Positions 511 to 60,745 of a stretch of DNA of 64,000 bases are shown one piece after another (within the stretch, counting starts at the first letter, position 1; every line of letters starts with the position of its first letter). The translations under genes were made by a program, and so were the position numbers. Source of the stretch: Chiloscyllium plagiosum. Lineage: Eukaryota. Below the pieces are notes generated by a model. It ran no database searches and was not told the DNA's origin. It was given only the letters and a program-made list of their open reading frames with translations. The stretch is from contig NC_057751.1 of the NCBI RefSeq assembly GCF_004010195.1, forward strand, positions 18,011,325-18,075,324. The letters run 5' to 3'.

Positions 511-594
511 AGTGTGGTGCTGGATAAGCACAACAGGTCAGGCCGCATCTGAAGAGCAGGAGAATCAACATTTCGGGCATACGCCTTCCTCAGG
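511..594 (-). mobile_element. Short PLE-terminus (hammerhead-bearing) element, degenerate copy
   Basis: Matches the family at 22866/23213/57737. Minus strand reads CTGAGGA-aggcgtatgccc-GAAATGTT-gattctcc. Confidence 0.75.
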
Positions 595-4795: not shown

Positions 4796-6029
4796 AAAAT
4801 TTGGAATGTTTCAATGGGAAGTGACTAATATGATTAAAAACACACCCATTCTCATTGAATACTATTCAAATATCGTTCAGCATAACTCTGGCAAGTCTTA
4901 TTCTCTTTAAAATCGATAGAGTTGATAATAAACCTTAAGTGTAACCTCATTAACCAGGAAAGTGGAGCCCACTGAATGAGTCCAATGACCAGAAGATGTG
5001 ATCCGTTCTCAGAGGCCACAACGCCCGATGTTCCGAATGACAATCACCACAGAGATAACTAAACCAGAAAGAAAAGCACTAAGGGAGTTTTAGCATGTCT
5101 CACTGCAAATGAACTTCTCAGTTACAAATTCAGATTCATTGAATTGCAAGAGTTCATCATAAAAGAATTTGAATCAGTCCATGGAGAATCATTTTAAGAC
5201 CAGGTTCACGGGTTAACACTGACAGCGCCGGAAAAACAGAGAGCAAGAGTGCAATGGAATTAATTAAAGAACACTAAATCTCATAATGAGAACAATTTAA
5301 AATATTGATGTCTGTTATCAGAAAATGGCATGGATTGCTTACTCGGGCATTTCCTCTGTATTTGTCCTTCTCCGTCTCAGAGGTGGGAGTTGCAGAAAAC
5401 GAACTTCTAAGTATTAACAAAAGACAAAGCTGAGGTGAGGAGTTCTTTAATTATAGCTGCTAGTTCATATAATAAAGGGAAGGACAGCATCAAGGTCCCA
5501 ATGGCATGGAATGTACTTCTGAAGAAGTGTGAAACCTCAGTAACAATTATTAAATCTTGGACCTTTTCTCTCCATTTCCATCAACATTCAATCCCACCAG
5601 GACAGTCAAACAATTGGTAGTACCATGTGATTAATGACTCAGTCGCACTGCACCAATATATCAATGCAACTGACAGTCTCCATATCAATTATCACTCCAT
5701 CTTGCCTACATATCATTACTCGCATCCTATTGACCAGTCTTTCTTCACATAATTATAATGCCATGGAAGACGCTCCTCCCCGTACCAAACCTTCCACTCC
5801 ATTGAATCATTGCTCTCATGACTTACTGGTCATCTCAGTGCCCGTTAAATCGCACTCCTAACATTGTCAATGCACTCATGCTACTAGTCAGTTCCGAAGT
5901 CAATCAAAAATGTCACCTCGCACACTGCCATCTCTCCCACTCTGATGGTCATATCTATCAGCACTCTTGCTCATAGCCTGTATGATGTTTCCAAACAGAT
6001 CAGTGCCCACATCCACCATTGGGAGAAAC

Positions 6030-6205
6030 GCAGGTCCACAGGCGCTGGAGATCAGTGCTGAGAGTATGTTGGTGGAAATGCACAGCAGGTCAGGCAGCAT
6101 CCACGAAGCCGGAGAATGGACGTTTTGGGCCGTCGGCCTTCGATTGTCCTGCTTTTCAAAAGCTGCCTGACCTGCTGTGCTTTGCCATCATCACAGTCTC
6201 GACTC
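6030..6205. mobile_element. Fold-back PLE-terminus element, decayed
   Basis: gcacagcaggtcaggcagc (6080) is inverted against gctgcctgacctgctgtgc (6162); ribozyme core lost. Confidence 0.75.
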
Positions 6206-11246: not shown

Positions 11247-11330
11247 TCTGGATCAATGGTGCTGGATGAGCACAGCAATTCAGGCAGCATCCTACGAGCA
11301 GCAAAATCGACGTTTCGGGCAAAAGCCCTT
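11247..11330 (-). mobile_element. Short PLE-terminus element inserted into the CR1 RT region
   Basis: ggtgctggatgagcacagcaattcaggcagcatcc..tcgacgtttcgggcaaaagccctt interrupts CR1 between agggat and ggctttgtg. Confidence 0.8.
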
Positions 11331-16213: not shown

Positions 16214-17205
16214 GACCAGTTGGAAGAACATAGCAACCCAGGCAGCATACGGACGTGAAGAGATCAACGTTTCGAGTATAACATTTTTTTCAGTTCTGGG
16301 TGTCAGGGGATCTACAGGTTCAGGGGCATTGGGAAGGGTTTTCAGTGGGGAGAGGAGCGTGTTGACAGAAAGGAAGAGGTGAACGCATGCAGATTGCATG
16401 CTCTTTTAGATAGATGGGAGGAATGAATATGGATGGAAGCTGGAAGGAATGGCGGATCAGAGGACTGGAATGGAGAGGAATGGGTTGGAAAGGGAGTCGG
16501 GGATGGGAAGAGAAGATTTTTTGAAATTGGAGAAAACTTCACTGAGTTCTCCCATTTCAATAACCTCTCTTCCATTTCCCTGATGCCCTTTCCAGCACAT
16601 TCCCCTCCGTTCCATTGGAGGAACAACACGTCATCATTTGAATGGGGCGAAAATGAGGTGTTATTCCTCCAAGTTTCGTTCTGATTCGCTTTAGCAATGG
16701 AGGAGGGCAACGATGGTCAGGTCAGAAAGGGAGTGAGAGGAGGATTTCAAGTGGGCAGTTCCTGAGAGGTCAGATCAGCCCCTGTAAGCCCGGCTGAGAT
16801 GCTTGGAGAATCTTACCCTGAGTTTGTGCTTGTTGTCACTGGGCAGCCAGCAACCTGGAGGAAACAAAATTATCTTCTCCAAGTTCAATTAACATCCCTT
16901 CCCACCCTGGTATGACTTTTCATCCTCACCCCTTTCCATTGTTCTGATCGATCCTTCCTCCCATCGATCTACCAAGTCGTACCGTCGACCTGTGTTCCCT
17001 ACCTCACTAGCCCTCCCTTTTACCGACGGAAACGCTGCCGCAGTTTATCTGCAGCTCCCCATGCAGGAACCTCCAGTTCTGAAAACAGGTTATACCCGAA
17101 ACCTTGAACTATCCATCACCTGCTGCTGCCTGGGTTCTTGTATTCTTCCAGCCTTCTGCTTGTCTGGCTTGAAATCCCAGTATCTGCAGTGTTTTTGTCT
17201 CTACC
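16214..17205. mobile_element. Inverted (fold-back) Penelope-like insertion with GIY-YIG C-terminal remnant and 11-bp TSD
   Basis: Minus arm encodes FSKHL..AHLKSSSHSLSDLTIVALLHC*SESERNLEE*HLIF. Plus arm ends in the terminal repeat with a decayed hammerhead (17075-17110). CTTTCACAGCA flanks both sides (16203-16213, 17206-17216). Confidence 0.8.
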
Positions 17206-22665: not shown

Positions 22666-22865
22666 AGAGTTAACACTGTTTTCGGGTTGTTCAGCTTCGT
22701 GGCTTGGAAATATTCAGACAGATCCAGTCTGAGATTTGGACAGATTTGAAGAGATTAGGGGTGCAAAAGATACCAGCAGATGTAAACATTTTCAGAGTAG
22801 TGTCCTAGATCTTTAAATAAACGGGAGGTGAGACGGTAAGTTTAATTTTGGCTATTACTGGATAG

Positions 22866-22954
22866 TTGAAACTTTATTGCTGGAACAGCACAGCAGGTCA
22901 GGCAGCATCCAGGGAACAGGAGATTCGACGTTTCGGGCACAGGCCCTTCTTCAG
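22866..22954 (-). mobile_element. 89-bp PLE-terminus element with intact hammerhead core and 15-bp flanking direct repeat
   Basis: Minus strand CTGAAGA-a-GGGC ctgt GCCC-GAAACGTC-gaatctcc. GCTATTACTGGATAG occurs at 22851-22865 and 22962-22976. Confidence 0.85.
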
Positions 22955-23212
22955 TAATTGAGCTATTACTGGATAGCTCAATTAAGAATGAGTGACAACA
23001 TGCTCTTAAAATTGCTATAGAAGTTCTGGGGTTTGAAGATGATACCCAAATTTTCCAAGAAAATGTAGAAAGAAATGACCGTACTTGTAGGTCCAATGTG
23101 CCTGGACTCTGACAACATACGTCAGTAGAATAAACAAGAAGGCATACGGCATGTTCTCCTTCATCGGGATGGGTATTGAGTACAAGAATTCACAGGTCAT
23201 ATTACAGTTGTA

Positions 23213-23424
23213 GCAAAAATTGTGTTGCTGGAAAAGCGCAGCAGGTCAGGCAGCATCCAAGGAGCAGGAGAAGCGACGTTTCGGGCATGAGCCCTTCTTC
23301 AGGACTCATGCCCGAAACGTCGATTCTCCTGCTCCTTGGATGCTGCCTGACCTGCTGCGCTTTTCCAGCAACACATTTTCAGCTCTTATCTCCAGCATCT
23401 GCAGTCCTCTCTTTCTCCTAGAAG
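23213..23424. mobile_element. Fold-back PLE-terminus element, 71-bp arms, 14-bp TSD
   Basis: Arms 23221-23291 and 23305-23375 pair at 70/71. ATATTACAGTTGTA at 23199-23212 and 23425-23438. Inserted in a CR1 fragment. Confidence 0.92.
23270..23307 (-). ncRNA. Minimal type-I hammerhead ribozyme motif
   Basis: gagtc-CTGAAGA-a-GGGC tcat GCCC-GAAACGTC-gcttc. Core intact; one mismatch in stem I. Confidence 0.75.
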
Positions 23425-23624
23425 ATATTACAGTTGTATCCTCACAACACAGCCCTTAGCTGTTTCTACAAAATGTTATACTGTAACCTGGCTCCGAACT
23501 CTCTGTGCTTCTCTGGTCCTTGGTAGCTTTTGAAATCTCTTAAATGTGCAGTATCCCTTACACATTCATTACAATGTGGATGCAGACAGAATACATCAGA
23601 AAGTTCTCTTTGCTTTTACCGTGG

Positions 23625-36970: not shown

Positions 36971-37041
36971 GTAAAAACAATGACTGCAGATGCTGGAAAC
37001 CAGATTCTGGATTAGTGGTGCTGGAAGAGTACAGCAGTTCA
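36971..37041 (-). mobile_element. PLE-terminus element, distal fragment
   Basis: actgcagatgctggaaaccagattctggattagtggtgctggaagagtacagcagttca overlaps the 11247 variant. Confidence 0.7.
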
Positions 37042-37849: not shown

Positions 37850-39560
37850 TCCGGAATATAATGAACCTTACCCCACATACTTTGTCTCGGATTTCTGGTT
37901 AATTCCTGTTGTTACAACTTCATCAAGAAAGATGGCATCCCAGATTAAATATGACAACACGCTTTGCATCGTCGACTGAATAATGGCACCGACGGTTGAT
38001 ACCCCAAATGGCAGTCTCGTACATTGTTACAAATCCATATGGCATTAAACGAAGCAAGTTTCTATGAATTCTTAGAAAAGCGTGGTGTACATGGCTCATA
38101 TTCGGATTCATTAATCCCTTCTCCGCAACCAGCCCCCACCTGCCACAGTTGCAGACAAGTTCTCTGTGCAAATGATTTAGCATTTATCCACCGGGAGAAC
38201 TGGTTAACTGTTTGAATAAAGTTGCCTCAAATTGAAACCGATCCATCGATCTTCACAATTATTGGAAACATTGCTGTACATTCTGCTAACTACTCTTTTC
38301 TGCATTCCCTAAATTATCAGCTTTCTGACCCATGCCTCTACTTTTGCACTTAATGGCGCTGGATGGGCCTGTAAACTTGCATCTCAGTTCAAGTGCAAGA
38401 TGGTGAAAAATGTGTTGCTGGAACCAAGTGTAAGTTATCTGACTAACAGAAGGAGCAGGAGAATCGACGTTTCGGGCTTTCTTCAGGCTTATGCTCGAAA
38501 CGTCGATTCTCCTGTTCCCTGGATGCTGCCTGAACTGCAACGCTTTTCCAGCAAAACATTTTTCAGCTCTGGTCTCCAGCATCTGCAGTCTTCACTTTCT
38601 CCTCCTTCACGTGCAAGATGGTGTTGGGCCCTTTGACAGTCCCTGAACCTTCCTGAAAATGGTTTGGGTGGTTAATTCCGACTACACTTAGTCAGCTATT
38701 TTCTCCTCGAAAAATGTTGAGAAGTCAAGTTGAATCTTTCTGAACTGGTTTCGCCCCATAAAACTTGGGGAAGGCATTTTCTGACAATTGGTGTTAACTG
38801 ACCAAGGTACTTTACATACCACTCTGGAACTGGAATTGTACCTTTAGTCTGTAAAAGCGTTCCAAGTGTAAGTTATCTGTCTAACAGAAGTCACGTGCAA
38901 TCGGAAGTGTTGGTCACCATAGCAATTTTTTTAAAGACTGTTTCTGCAATCACTGATACAGCCATGTGGGGTCAACCTCCTTTAGAATCGGGTGCCCCTT
39001 TAACCAGACTTTGATGGGTTTAGATTTGAATGTTGTGCAGCATATAAACTGTTTTCAGGCAAATATAGGTGCACGTTCCATACTGGAAATCTTAATAAGT
39101 TAATTCTGGCTACTCAGACTTTTTTGTCTTCCTGATGACGCATGCCAACAGCAACTGCAATGGTTTGCTAGCGCACATACGGAGGACAGTGCTAAACATT
39201 TGTCCGTAGCTTGGATTTTCTTTTTTATTGTGGAGGGGTTGTGGTGTTTGCTGAGGGCTGACCTAGAGCCGATCTGTTTATGTGAAATCGTGTGTAACTG
39301 CATGCAATTGCATTCACTCAAGTATTATGTGCAAAGCTCAGTCGACCTGGAGAGAGTACCAACTTCCATAGGCATAATTATGTTTTCAACTTATCACTTA
39401 TCTAAAATCAACGCCAGCTGTAGTGCCTGTTCAAGTTCAGGACGGCTTCAGCTAGAATGTGCCTATTTTATCATTAAATTAATCCCATTAACATCATGAC
39501 TGAAATAACTTCATCGGCGCCAGTATCCTGTCACCAGAGTACCATCTATTCACGCATGCA
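37850..39560 (-). mobile_element. Decayed Gypsy LTR-retrotransposon gag-protease-RT fragment
   Basis: Minus strand ILAEAVL..QALQLAL (gag), PSFMGRN..RKIQLD (end of protease region), IVKIDGSVSI*GNF..TVNQF and TRLPFGVST..IIQSTM..AIFLDEV (YLDD equivalent). Confidence 0.8.
38406..38605. mobile_element. Fold-back PLE-terminus element inside Gypsy pol, 18-bp TSD
   Basis: TTCAAGTGCAAGATGGTG (38388-38405) vs TTCACGTGCAAGATGGTG (38606-38623); inverted arms around cttcagg. Confidence 0.88.
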
Positions 39561-44799: not shown

Positions 44800-44887
44800 A
44801 ATGCTGGTGAAGAGCTTATGGTCGAAACGTCGACTCTACTTCTCCTCGGATCTGCCTGACTGGTTATGCTTTTCCAGCGCCACACTC
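44800..44887 (+). mobile_element. PLE-terminus element with degenerate hammerhead
   Basis: CTGGTGA-agagcttatggtc-GAAACGTC-gactc..ctgcctgac..cttttccagc. Confidence 0.75.
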
Positions 44888-45491
44888 TTCTGTCTTTTTC
44901 TCCAAAGCTTGGATATTTCCCAAATGTTTGCTGGGGAGGGGCGTGTGGCTTGAATAAATGGAGTTTCTGACCCACCTAATGTCCAGCGTGGCACCCACAT
45001 GTTCTGCGTGGCTGGGTGCTCCTAGTCAATCCTGGATGTCAGCGGGTCTGATAGATGTGTGGGTGCTCTTCATGTGGGCCTGCGAAAAATGTTGGAACAG
45101 CGTGTGGGTCTGTTGAAATCGCTGAGGGAATTCAAACTTTTCATAAAGTATATCAGTGATTCTAATGAGTTCCTGGTCAGTAGTCCTGACCTTCAGCGCT
45201 CCGACGGTCTTATCGTTGACCTGGACTCCTTGATGTCTTTTTATTGGGTGTTCAATTCTTATTCCTGTGGTTGTGGGGCCTATTTTTCCAGCTTTCGGAT
45301 TCGTCCTCGGGTTAATGGTTCCAGCGTTGGTAATCGTAATTTGTCAATCAGGGCATCCTCAGACCTACAAGTAGATTGAAAATACTTAAGAAAAAGATCT
45401 GCTTTCGACAGCTTGCCAGGATTTACCTTGCTCTGGCACCAACTCAGATGACCTTGGAATGTTTCTCCAAAATATTACGTTGTTCAAACCT

Positions 45492-53452: not shown

Positions 53453-53523
53453 GTGGTGCTGGAAAAACACAGCATGTGAGAAGAAGAAGAATCGACTTTT
53501 CGGGCATAAGCCCTTTATCAGGA
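53453..53523 (-). mobile_element. PLE-terminus element, internally deleted, degenerate hammerhead
   Basis: Minus strand CTGATAA-a-GGGC ttat GCCC-GAAAAGTC-gattc. Confidence 0.75.
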
Positions 53524-55330: not shown

Positions 55331-57736
55331 CTCTGCTTCTATTTCTATGAAATCTGCACTCTTGATGTCTGATTATCGGCACTTTTGAAACGATATTCTA
55401 CATCCAGCGCTTCAGATCTTTGAGTTTTGCGACTCTAAATTGCCTGTTCAACATTCTTTTCTGCAGAGCAGTTGGTTCCATTGTATCAATCATGAGGATA
55501 TTTGCTGAATCCAAACACGCGCATGTGTGTGTTTGTGTGTGTGTGTGTGCACGCGCACATCTTTCAGTCTGTCTGTGTATCGGTTGCACATTCTCTCCAT
55601 GTCTGTGTCTAAGTGTAAGATGGAGCATAAGGCAAGCTTCACTAACATGCTCACTACTCAAGAGTGATAACAAAATGATGAAATGTCGTCCAGTTTGAGA
55701 GCGATAAACATACAAATGAACCGAATCCATACACTTAAAAAGAAAACACGTGAGAGCATACTTTGTTATGGTGGACTGGTAAAGAAAGAGAAATACTAGC
55801 ATGGTAAATATGGTGAAGGAGCAGCGCCCCAGAAGTTAGTAGCTCCAAATAAACATGTTGGACTATAATCTGGTGTTGTGTGATTTTCGGCATGGTAAAT
55901 AAACTGTGATGCGCTCTAATCGTGACATTTCACAACTCTCAAAGAGCATACTGTTCACAAAGATACACTTGAATGAGATGGGAGCACTAATCTTTTAATT
56001 TAAGGATCATTAGAAAGTGGATGAAATTGGTCAATGCTGTGAAGCGGTCTCGTTAAGTTAGGTCTTTTTTTTCAAAATGCAATCGACGGTTTGTCGAAAA
56101 GGTGGGCGACAGCTGCACGGAAATGTAAAATAACAACAAGTGATTCACAAAGAAAATGAAAGGAACTTCGACAAGTTTTGATAAATAGATGACGATTGTG
56201 AAAGCAAATATTCATCCCTGATTGAATGGAACTCTGTAATTAAAACTGGGAGTTGATGAAAATGCTGTAGACGATCAACAAATACCATGCAGCTCTTTGT
56301 ACAGAGGAAAGCATTTTTAAAAAATGTACAAAAACAGAAATCAAGTACTAAATAGGGAGATTGGAGAAACGATTAGAAACAACCATCACCAGTGACGAGC
56401 ATGTACTGCAGTGAAAAGCTTGGAAGAGAGTTTTGTGAAAATGTGGGAAATTGGCAGCAGGTAATGATACCCTCTTGAACAGCCAATGGAAATACAATGT
56501 TGAAAAAGACGTCCATCTGCGCTGTATGAAGCCTGTGATTCCAGAATTTAAGAATCTTAGACTAAGTGACAGAAAATGTCGTGCATTTTGGGTTTAATTT
56601 TGCTAAACTCTTTTGTTCTGAGAAGGACCCAGTCGATCAGAGAAGCAGAATATCAGCTGTTAGAAATCTTACAAAAGGCTTGGTTTACAATGGTAAGTCC
56701 GGGCATTTAAGCACAAAGCCGTGATTTGCTCCCTTTGAACTATGTGAGAATCCAGGCTCATTTCCAGTTCCCAGTGAGCAGGAAAATACTCCAAGTGCAA
56801 AAATCTAATCTAATCTAATCTGATCTAATCTCCTGAAAGCTCGTATTTTGGAAATGGACTGGCCGCTCGTACACAGTGGAAGATCCACTGAGGGAATCAC
56901 GTCTGTCAAGTCACGTTTCTTCCTTCTTCTTTCCATTGTGAAAAGCCCAATTCACTCAACTTCTGTTCATACAACAAGCCCTCTGATCCAGGCAGCATCC
57001 TGGTAAATTCCCTCTGCACTCTCTCTACAGCATCTACATTATTCCCATAATGAGGCAAACAGAAGTGTGCACAATATTCTAAATGTGGTCCAAAAAACGT
57101 TTCACTGAGCTGCAGCAAAACCTCGCTGCTTTCCAACTCAACCTCCTGTTAATGAAAGCCTTCTGAACAAATTGGGTAGTAACGTTTACGGTTCTACGTT
57201 CGTGGATAGCAAGATCCCGCTGTACCGCCACACTTCCTTGAATGCTGTCTTTAAGAATGTTTTCAGCATTCAAATTCGACCTTCCTAAATGAATCAGTTC
57301 GCATTTATCCAGGTTCAACTCGAACTGTCTCTTCTCAGCCCAGCTCTGAATCCTGCCAATGTATTTTTGTAGCCTGCAACACTTCTTGTCACTATCTACA
57401 ACACCAACAACCTTTGTTCATCGGCAAACTTACTGACTCACACTTCCACTTCTTCATCCACGTCATTTATAAAAAGTAAAAAAATGCAGACGCCCAAGAA
57501 GGACACCACACATCACGACCAGCAGGCAGAATGCTTTCCATATACTACTACCTGTTGTATTCTTTTCGTCAGCCAATTTTTCAGCAGCAAGCCACATTCC
57601 CCTGCATCTCATATCTCCTAACGTTCTGAATGAGGATACGTGGGGAACCTTATCAAATACCTTATTGAAATCCATTTCCAACACTTCCACTGCTCGACCT
57701 TCGTTACATTCAAATAACTCAACAAGATTTGTGAGG

Positions 57737-57859
57737 AGAAAGTGAGGTCTGCAGACGCTGGAGATCAAAGCTGAAACTTTATTGCTGGAACAGCACAGCA
57801 GGTCAGGCAGCATCCAGGGAACAGAAGATTCGATGTTTCGGGCACATGCCCTTCTTCAG
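57737..57859 (-). mobile_element. Single-unit PLE-terminus element with hammerhead core and about 12-bp TSD
   Basis: Minus strand CTGAAGA-a-GGGC atgt GCCC-GAAACATC-gaatc..cactttct. AGATTTGTGAGG (57725) vs AGACTTGTGAGG (57858). Confidence 0.85.
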
Positions 57860-57873
57860 ACTTGTGAGGCATT

Positions 57874-59524: not shown

Positions 59525-60745
59525 TCCTGAAGGGGAGGTGTTAGAAGACTTAAACGTTTTCGATAGAGAAATCCCACCACGCTTAGAAGGTTGTAGCCCC
59601 GGTTTTTGTCGGAGGCTAGGGAGGAAAGATTGGTGCCCTTTATGGAGATATTTGTATTATCAACAACCACCGGTGAAGTTTCCAAAGATTGGTGTGTGAA
59701 TAATGTTGTACTATTATTTTTGAACGCCTGTTGGGAAATGCGGAGAAACGACAGACCGTGAGCTAAACGACTATGTTGGATAAGTTGTTATAGGGTATTC
59801 TGAGAGGTTGGATTTGTAGGCATTCGAAGAGGTAAGCACTCATTTGGGACAATTTGCATGGTTTCGCGCTTTGGACGAATATATCGGAATGGTTTCGTAT
59901 CACCTAAGGTTAAATCTCACGAGATCTAGGGTGAGATAAGCAAATGGAGCTTGCCAAAATGGTTTGGACGATTGAAGACAGTGGATGGTGATAGATGGTT
60001 GTTTTCTGGACTGAAGGACAGGAACTAGCGGTCTGAGGCAGGGTTTGGTGCTGAGTCCATTGTTAGTCGTCATTCATATCAATGATTTGGATGAGAATTT
60101 AGGCGATATAGCTGTTAAGGTTTCAAAAGAAATCAAGATTGATAGTGTAGTGGACAGGGAAACGGTTATCTGGGATTGCAGCGTGATTTTGATCATCTGG
60201 GCCAGAGGATGCTGGAAAGACAAATAGAGTTAACTTAGATAAATGCAAACTGTTGGATTTTGATGTCAAAGTAGGGCAAGTTTCCACAGTCAATGGTAAG
60301 GCCCTGTGGAGAGTTATAGAACAAAGAGATCACGGTGTACAGGATCACATCTCCTCCAAAGTGGAGTAACAAATATGCACAAAACGTCGATTCTCCTACT
60401 TCTCTGATGTTGCCTGATCTGCGGTGCTTTCCCAGCACCACATTCTAGAGTTTCGTCTCCAGCATCTGCACTCCTCACTTATTCCTGTTAAAGAAGGCTT
60501 TCAGCATGCTTCGTTTCATTGTACAGAACATTAAGTATTGAAGTTTGGACGTCGCGCTGCAGCTGGTCAAGACATTGGTGAGGTCACGTTTGGAGGACAG
60601 TGTTCAATTCTGCTCGCAGTGTTATGGAAAGGGTATTATCAAACTGGAAAGAATGAAAAAGAAGGCGTTCGAACGTGAATGGACTGGAACATTTGAATTA
60701 AAAGGAATGTCTGCATTGGCGAATACATTTTTTCGTGTAGAGTAG
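59525..60745 (+). mobile_element. Decayed CR1 RT fragment containing a PLE-terminus piece (about 60378-60485, plus strand)
   Basis: VLSPLLVVIHINDLDEN and LVKTLVRSRLEDSVQF; insert aaacgtcgattctcct..ccagcatctgcactcctcactt. Confidence 0.8.

Follow-up and report, generated by a model that had tools for sequence, protein, structure and literature searches.

The window analysed here, a 64,000-nucleotide stretch of the Chiloscyllium plagiosum genome, contains short repeats that resemble hammerhead ribozymes, and the region at 22851-23438 holds two such insertions. This locus raises the question of whether such repeats form a mobile family of their own or are the debris of a larger element, and whether their motif is still a ribozyme. 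We found that they are most probably (probability about 0.9) dead-on-arrival insertions of endonuclease-bearing Penelope-like elements (PLEs) of at least three families. Family membership, copy numbers, target-site duplications (TSDs), continuity with remnants of reverse transcriptase (RT) and endonuclease, and the distributions of copy ends were observed directly and carry this reading.

Results

Two separate insertions and their relatives in the window

Direct reading showed that 22851-23438 holds two separate insertions, 22866-22961 and 23213-23424, each with its own TSD (Table 1). The first stops at the short 3′ end of the tail, and its core, on the minus strand, matches exactly at 22927-22954. 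The second is a hairpin: read in reverse complement, the left arm (23213-23301) repeats the right arm (23302-23424), with 96% identity across 78 nt by blastn. When the right arm was compared with 40 scored genomic copies, identities were 97-100%, the value of 100% being the locus itself; the 39 non-self matches had 97-98% identity, which indicates that part of the repeat family is young.

A blastn search of the window with the forward arm (23302-23422) as query matched every one of the 11 places that the preliminary description had listed, which therefore represent one repeat family. Copies other than the two exact ones read as decayed or truncated forms of the same sequence. The element at 16214, also placed in the family by that description, proved to be a diverged relative whose right end aligns with a family-A copy. 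TSDs had been claimed for four copies, and we found them in six, at 8-15 bp: 15 bp (22866), 14 bp (23213), 13 bp (38406), 14 bp (6030), 11 bp (16214) and about 8 bp (57737). The hairpins of the window are those at 6030, 23213 and 38406 plus the 16214 element, and all four have one short and one long tail. In the 38406 hairpin, about 40 nt of unrelated filler (window 38425-38450) splits the inverted arm between its tail and hammerhead parts.

Table 1 Insertions, arms and target-site duplications in the 64-kb window, with blastn matches to the forward arm 23302-23422
Position	Strand	Feature	blastn match	Basis and remarks
513-580	-	Decayed copy	513-580	blastn, 85% across 68 nt
6022-6195	-	Hairpin copy (6030 copy): short-ended inverted arm, long-ended forward arm; 14-bp TSD	6022-6195	blastn and reading
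11257-11321	-	Family-B-like copy, truncation within motif	11257-11321	blastn and reading
16214-17194	+	Diverged, older insertion from a related PLE family, a hairpin with long arms; 11-bp TSD		Reading and alignment
22851-22865	.	Left TSD of 22866 copy		15 bp, identical to 22962-22976
22866-22961	-	Solo mini-copy: hammerhead motif and short-ended tail, CTGT-loop subfamily	22864-22939	blastn
22962-22976	.	Right TSD of 22866 copy		15 bp
23199-23212	.	Left TSD of hairpin copy		14 bp, identical to 23425-23438
23213-23301	-	Inverted arm of hairpin: short-ended tail and complete hammerhead motif	23217-23422 (both arms)	blastn; exact core 23275-23302, minus strand
23302-23424	+	Forward arm of hairpin: from inside stem II to long tail end	23217-23422 (both arms)	blastn
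23425-23438	.	Right TSD of hairpin copy		14 bp
36971-37041	-	Family-B tail fragment with long end	36982-37041	blastn; 53 nt identical to locus L032
38407-38603	+	Hairpin copy, 13-bp TSD, unrelated filler in inverted arm	38407-38603	blastn and reading
44815-44904	+	Decayed copy	44815-44904	blastn and reading
53470-53513	-	Decayed copy, degenerate core	53470-53513	blastn and reading
57734-57861	-	Solo mini-copy, from 2 nt before CUGA to long tail end; TSD about 8 bp	57734-57844	blastn and reading
60375-60486	+	Copy with truncation inside stem II, long tail end	60375-60486	blastn and reading

Copy number and lineages in the genome

Copies were counted as exact pattern matches in the 3.56-Gb assembly, with the reversed pattern as control. 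The core motif gave 45,243 + 45,256 = 90,499 matches, and a mid-tail word of 21 bases gave 89,329 + 88,799 = 178,128; the reversed pattern gave 0 in both cases. The family comprises at least 178,000 arms, about 1 per 20 kb. At least three lineages could be distinguished. Family A has the loops TCAT, TTAT or TAAT, the CTGT-loop subfamily includes the copies at 22866 and 57737, and family B, with CUGAUGA and the loop TTTT, includes those at 11257 and 36971. When families A and B are compared, conservation is highest in the core (86%) and in the 43 nt that follow it (84%), while upstream sequence reaches 62-70%.

In some family-B copies the long tail end is followed by a 155-nt segment (L032:1156-1310, also at L024 and L115) that contains an ATG-led frame. 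The segment occurs at 1,081 or more places in the genome, and in 11 of 39 non-self best matches the upstream repeat adjoins it directly, with the joint at about -205; this joint of tail, 155-nt segment and upstream repeat may mark an ORF-less derivative of family B. None of the window copies holds the segment.

Another repeat, opening with a AAAATCACACAAC...CAGGTTATAG-like word, lies in the upstream flanks of L002, L007 and L024; it recurs beside PLE stubs and inside their TSDs and probably represents an abundant SINE-like family distinct from the PLEs. Non-LTR (CR1/L2-like) RT frames and an esterase-like word adjoin PLE copies at L025 (oriented locus, 370-807), L030 (438-782) and L042 (upstream of the N-run), and other retroelements often host PLE stubs.

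Longer copies run into Penelope-like coding remnants

In longer copies, a common C/T-rich stretch lies upstream of CUGA and is followed by coding remnants of an RT and a GIY-YIG endonuclease. At locus L003, where tail and window copy share 98% identity, a CX4CX2C linker, the kind of word found ahead of a GIY-YIG domain, is encoded about 560 nt before the core, and an N stretch follows. A conserved C-terminal word of the endonuclease is encoded 230-320 nt before the core at L030/L061, L015, L025 and L034. The linker and the GIY-YIG domain's start at L031:710-1141 are 82% identical to P0001, a shark protein of 486 aa in which the last part of a reverse transcriptase shares a single frame with a GIY-YIG domain, with scores that are both below cut-off (RVT_1 16.4 bits against a curated cut-off of 29.6, GIY-YIG 21.7 bits against 22.6). 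According to the available part of one source (PMC8557442), an RT followed by a GIY-YIG endonuclease in one frame is the hallmark of canonical PLEs. A Pfam search of four ORF fragments from the loci alone matched no family, and the endonuclease fragment had no meaningful match among PDB sequences.

Judged by the continuity of the tail with these RT and endonuclease remnants, the parent of the short copies is most probably a Penelope-like element, the tail being joined to remnants of the frame, and not to a full one, in the unmasked sequence that was read, as most long copies read N. N-runs of 443-3,386 nt adjoin the long copies and may include other elements, LINE-like sequence preceding the run of L042. 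The preliminary description had weighed extreme PLE truncations against a retrozyme-like family. The first alternative is supported, copy lengths reaching endonuclease coding sequence at L003, L015, L025, L030/L061 and L034; the second is not supported for these copies, among which head-to-tail arrays are absent. Since lengths running into PLE coding sequence had been named there as the mark of ordinary truncations, the proposal of a separate family is not upheld.

The C/T-rich repeat is poorly conserved except for a TTTATCT box, which three diverged PLE lineages (window 17044-17050, L008 and L032) have at a distance of 28-30 nt ahead of the core and which may be a promoter element. Its window copy belongs to the 16214 element, whose decayed core begins at 17079. 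The terminal arms of this element (16221-16289 and 17082-17150) are complementary at 75% across 69 nt, and further inverted matches make the arms long. Weak miRNA-family matches occur at 16464-16617 (32.8 bits at most, with the gathering score at 85); they merely reflect the inner inverted repeat of this long-armed PLE hairpin.

Insertion ends in 80 sampled arms

The sample consisted of 80 arms (30 + 50) from 100 listed places, taken at tail-word matches in order along contig 1 and aligned to three real copies; 50 arms belong to family A and 30 to family B. Two of the loci, L099 and L100, have a common TSD and represent one insertion that was duplicated. The PLE signature was present in the form of 5′ truncation, an inverted adjacent copy, a one-sided tail of 35-41 nt and a TSD. 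Two classes of 3′ ends were distinguished, one about 77-100 nt and the other 116-134 nt past the C of CUGA, with 35-41 nt between them; the short end lies just past a small hairpin that has an AC-rich word after it.

A head-to-head inverted arm was joined to 37 of the 80 arms. These hairpins were short/long in 30 cases, long/long in 2, short/short in none and unclear in 5. Thus 30 of the 32 classifiable hairpins were mixed, for which independent choice would predict half (binomial p = 2.5e-7). Solo copies ended short in 23 cases and long in 18, with 2 unclear. An exact TSD of at least 9 nt was found for 32/80 arms versus 0/80 mismatched-flank controls; by class, it was present in 24/37 hairpins (11-19 nt), 8/30 solos and 0/13 copies with the 5′ end out of view. 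At the 5′ junction of L021 (C1:310647), the opening 8 nt of the core are partially duplicated ahead of the full core, as if the polymerase had slipped.

In the Anolis PLE, as far as the available text of Frangieh 2024 (PMC11167929) describes it, the PLE protein cuts and extends both target strands, and RT starts at two internal sites near an AC-rich hairpin, the tail being the stretch between them. By analogy, we infer a similar priming of the shark stubs. The nicked chromosomal strand would be the primer for the PLE reverse transcriptase, which would enter the template internally, either about 90 or about 125 nt past CUGA, and would mostly halt within about 130 nt, leaving only the hammerhead motif and the tail inserted. 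The motif would be carried along because it is located in the terminal repeat of the element. Often both target strands would prime, and two copies would meet head to head to form a hairpin insert with a TSD of 11-19 bp. Having neither coding capacity nor an upstream repeat, such stubs would be unable to move again.

The distribution of 5′ ends does not fit this scheme in every respect. In family A, 32 of 50 arms ended within -13..+4 of CUGA, 19 of them at -5..-1, and the inner ends of both hairpin arms clustered at the same 5′ point as the family-A arms. The 5′ ends are thus not smoothly spread; plain loss of processivity does not predict the cluster of 32/50, and this counts against reading the copies as truncated stubs. 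Only 7 of 30 family-B arms ended within the same interval despite the same core, a result that speaks against the folded motif simply blocking the enzyme. The pile-up 1-5 nt before CUGA goes beyond the published accounts consulted and perhaps lies at the transcript start. The word around -4 fits the initiator consensus, YYANWYY.

A tentative alternative, which we regard as possible but short of probable, is that nothing has been truncated and that each stub is a complete run-off copy of a PLE transcript's first 95-130 nt. The transcript would begin 4-5 nt before CUGA at the initiator-like word TCATTCC, that is, 24-26 nt after the TTTATCT box, which keeps its spacing in three diverged families. 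Because RT starts internally at the tail fold, it could use the 5′-proximal tail of any transcript and run off the 5′ end. If run-off copying were true, it would explain why solo minimal hammerhead motifs far outnumber full PLEs, why both hairpin arms end at the same point, and how any 5′-truncated copy that keeps the box could be a source; the rule of one long and one short tail would then reflect coupled strand primings in a single insertion event.

Short copies compared with a separate mobile family

Could the short copies instead be a separate non-autonomous family, retrozyme- or SINE-like, with transcripts of its own and mobilised in trans by PLE proteins? We consider this highly improbable. 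Such a family would account for the discrete 5′ end of the 19/50 family-A arms that begin at -5..-1, but copies beginning at -4 or at the motif lack the upstream repeat and the conserved box. In the CTGT-loop subfamily, six arms are nearly identical (97.6-100%) and ATTC ends 16 of 20 solo rows by eye, which also speaks for a separate family; yet long copies occur in every subfamily, including 39 of the first 100 CTGT-loop rows and the 14 of 50 family-A arms that extend beyond -13. Those 100 CTGT-loop rows, classed by eye and possibly including both arms of one hairpin, comprised 39 with the same upstream 15 nt, 41 joined to an inverted arm (2 of them doubtful) and 20 with unrelated flanks. The occurrence of long copies in each subfamily indicates that the short ones are PLE by-products and not a lineage of their own.

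The ORF-less tail-X-pLTR arrangement seen in 11/39 non-self best matches of family B also speaks for a separate family, and Li et al. 2026 argue, in the available part of their preprint, that animal retrozymes derive from PLE terminal repeats. The genomic arrangement, however, differs from that of retrozymes. Direct pairs no more than 700 nt apart were present at only two places among the loci and the window, namely window 22926/23274 (own TSDs) and L034 = L066. Both are separate insertions, and a tandem or retrozyme arrangement was therefore rejected.

RNA reads point the same way. A raw single-cell polyA run with the same species label (X19) yielded 1,680 reads on L008:1293-1700, and a further raw RNA run (X20) yielded 0. 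In X19 the depth rose about 10-fold at the core, as in a DNA-like run, both orientations were covered, and 95% of the reads continued into unlike flanking sequence; a unit-length transcript was not seen. The reads showed no start or end pile, RNA joint or back-joint, in a polyA-selected library unsuited to transcript starts, cleavage or circles. Because reads track DNA copy number on both strands and run into the flanks, the stubs appear as passengers of other transcripts, which speaks against a family with transcripts of its own. We thus retain the reading as dead-on-arrival PLE insertions.

The hammerhead motif

Two window copies hold an intact motif of CUGANGA, stem II and GAAACGUC. The exact pattern CTGANGA-N-stem-loop-stem-GAAACGTC occurs at 22927-22954 and 23275-23302, both on the minus strand, and shuffles of the window average 0.01 matches. 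The sequence given in the preliminary description, CTGAAGA-A-GGGC-N4-GCCC-GAAACGTC, was recovered exactly in both insertions at 22851-23438. That description had further recognised a minimal type-I hammerhead layout, and our reading agrees: the CUGANGA and GAAA boxes stand in type-I order around the stem II hairpin, with G10.1-C11.1, a palindromic ACGU and no helix III, as in the available text of PMC4209133. Within GAAACGUC the palindrome ACGU (15.2-16.2), by which two motifs could pair, has no loop, so the helix III hairpin is absent. An additional base, A in nearly all cases, separates CUGANGA from GGGC...GCCC among the 100 rows listed, the pattern itself having fixed the stem parts. Helix I is short: AUUC/GAAU gives the CTGT-loop subfamily 4 bp, and AUUC/GAUU in families A and B forms 3 of 4 pairs, compared with 4-5 bp in the published form.

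A covariance-model check, proposed as a means of verification, gave no support: there were 0 Rfam hammerhead matches in the whole window, at the gathering score and with E up to 10, and the scan returned only weak miRNA-like matches to hairpin arms. The preliminary description had made the lack of such a match one half of its refuting condition for the ribozyme, but this is weak evidence, since absence of an Rfam hammerhead match is expected where helix III is absent. Cervera and De la Pena 2014 (PMC4209133), in the part available, required a descriptor of their own for the helix-III-less form. They also list three features that their search did not impose, namely the base 9/10.1, G10.1-C11.1 and the palindromic 15.2-16.2, and the shark motif has all three.

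Ribozyme activity of the stub motif is predicted from this layout. The motif could instead no longer be a ribozyme and be kept because it overlaps the transcript start or an RNA fold recognised by RT. We consider this rather unlikely, although helix I has just 3-4 bp and no Rfam hammerhead model matched. Across diverged families the boxes are conserved, whereas loop II and position N7 (A, U or G) are free to change, and stem II closes with C-G in families A and B versus U-A in the 16214 element, a pattern that gives a maintained ribozyme some support. Folding was less decisive: z-scores of monomers and dimers ranged from -0.08 to -1.9 against mononucleotide shuffles, which is weak either way and if anything fits a relic, and cofolding, a weak test, yielded dimers of the motif.

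Insertion 5′ ends are scarce around the cut site (predicted at +28), with just 6 of 80 arms starting within +20..+36. This suggests that cleaved RNA is rarely the template and is also what a relic motif would give. No pile of read ends was seen at the cut site, in a single-cell polyA library that cannot reveal cleavage ends. In the available account of Frangieh 2024 (PMC11167929), ribozyme mutants insert normally in vitro and RNA-seq ends are lacking at the cut site, as for a relic, but the same work describes protein-assisted cleavage of the Anolis PLE hammerhead.

Discussion

Our results indicate that the two insertions at 22851-23438 are members of a very large set of PLE stubs. Their direct value is small: they add another very large PLE stub family, useful for repeat annotation of the Chiloscyllium plagiosum genome. 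The counts provide a natural record of PLE integration that fits the in-vitro work of 2024, with two starts, priming from both strands and an uncleaved template. Two regularities have to be accommodated by any mechanism, namely the hairpin with one tail only and the 5′ ends fixed just before the hammerhead. Evgen'ev and Arkhipova 2005 is reportedly the work that Craig et al. 2021 cite for canonical EN+ PLE insertion units.

Motif-bearing PLE stubs are a kind that has been in print since 2014 (2014-2024). In the literature searched, no dedicated account of such repeats in cartilaginous fish was found; the preprint of Li, Clavereau and Pollet 2026, in its available part, includes one chondrichthyan, and cartilaginous fish are not among the hosts named in the accessible text of Cervera and De la Pena 2014 (PMC4209133). 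These authors regarded such motifs as "probably related to truncated PLEs". The minimal hammerheads that they describe from the pseudo-LTRs of metazoan PLEs have, like the shark copies, the boxes, no helix III, an unpaired base 9/10.1, G10.1-C11.1 and a palindromic 15.2-16.2, and they likewise occur mostly solo, with some paired on opposite strands 100-700 bp apart (PMC4209133). Stem II has 4 bp in the shark family versus 7-8 bp in the Schistosoma families, and our 90,499 exact cores are about 10 times the numbers given for coelacanth (4,000) and Xenopus (9,000), which were obtained with a descriptor that differs from the present pattern (PMC4209133).

Animal non-LTR retrozymes resemble the shark copies in being non-coding, in carrying a type-I hammerhead, in their kinship to PLE terminal repeats and in their dispersed solo "monomers". 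Retrozymes, in contrast, form head-to-tail tandem arrays and circular RNA, whereas the shark copies are dispersed singles or head-to-head pairs with TSDs of their own (PMC7229834 and Li, Clavereau and Pollet 2026, preprint, both as far as available).

Canonical EN+ PLE units, in the portion of PMC8557442 available, share with the shark insertions strong 5′ truncation, an adjacent inverted 5′-truncated copy and a tail of 30-40 bp, often at one end. In the shark, truncation usually leaves about 95-130 nt of either arm, which makes the entire insert a 200-bp hairpin, and the one-tail rule, given as "often" for the canonical units, is quantified at 30 of 32 hairpins.

A further close counterpart is PAc, the Poseidon PLE of Anolis carolinensis, which has been studied biochemically (PMC11167929, available part). 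There too the hammerhead lies just before the RT start region, two starts a tail length apart lie close to an AC-rich hairpin, cutting and extension affect both strands of the target, and the template is mainly uncleaved RNA. The two systems differ in their reading frames. The PAc ORF begins inside stem II, whereas in the shark an ATG in loop II occurs only in some subfamilies and its frame ends after 26 codons; a possible shark ORF start lies after the long tail end.
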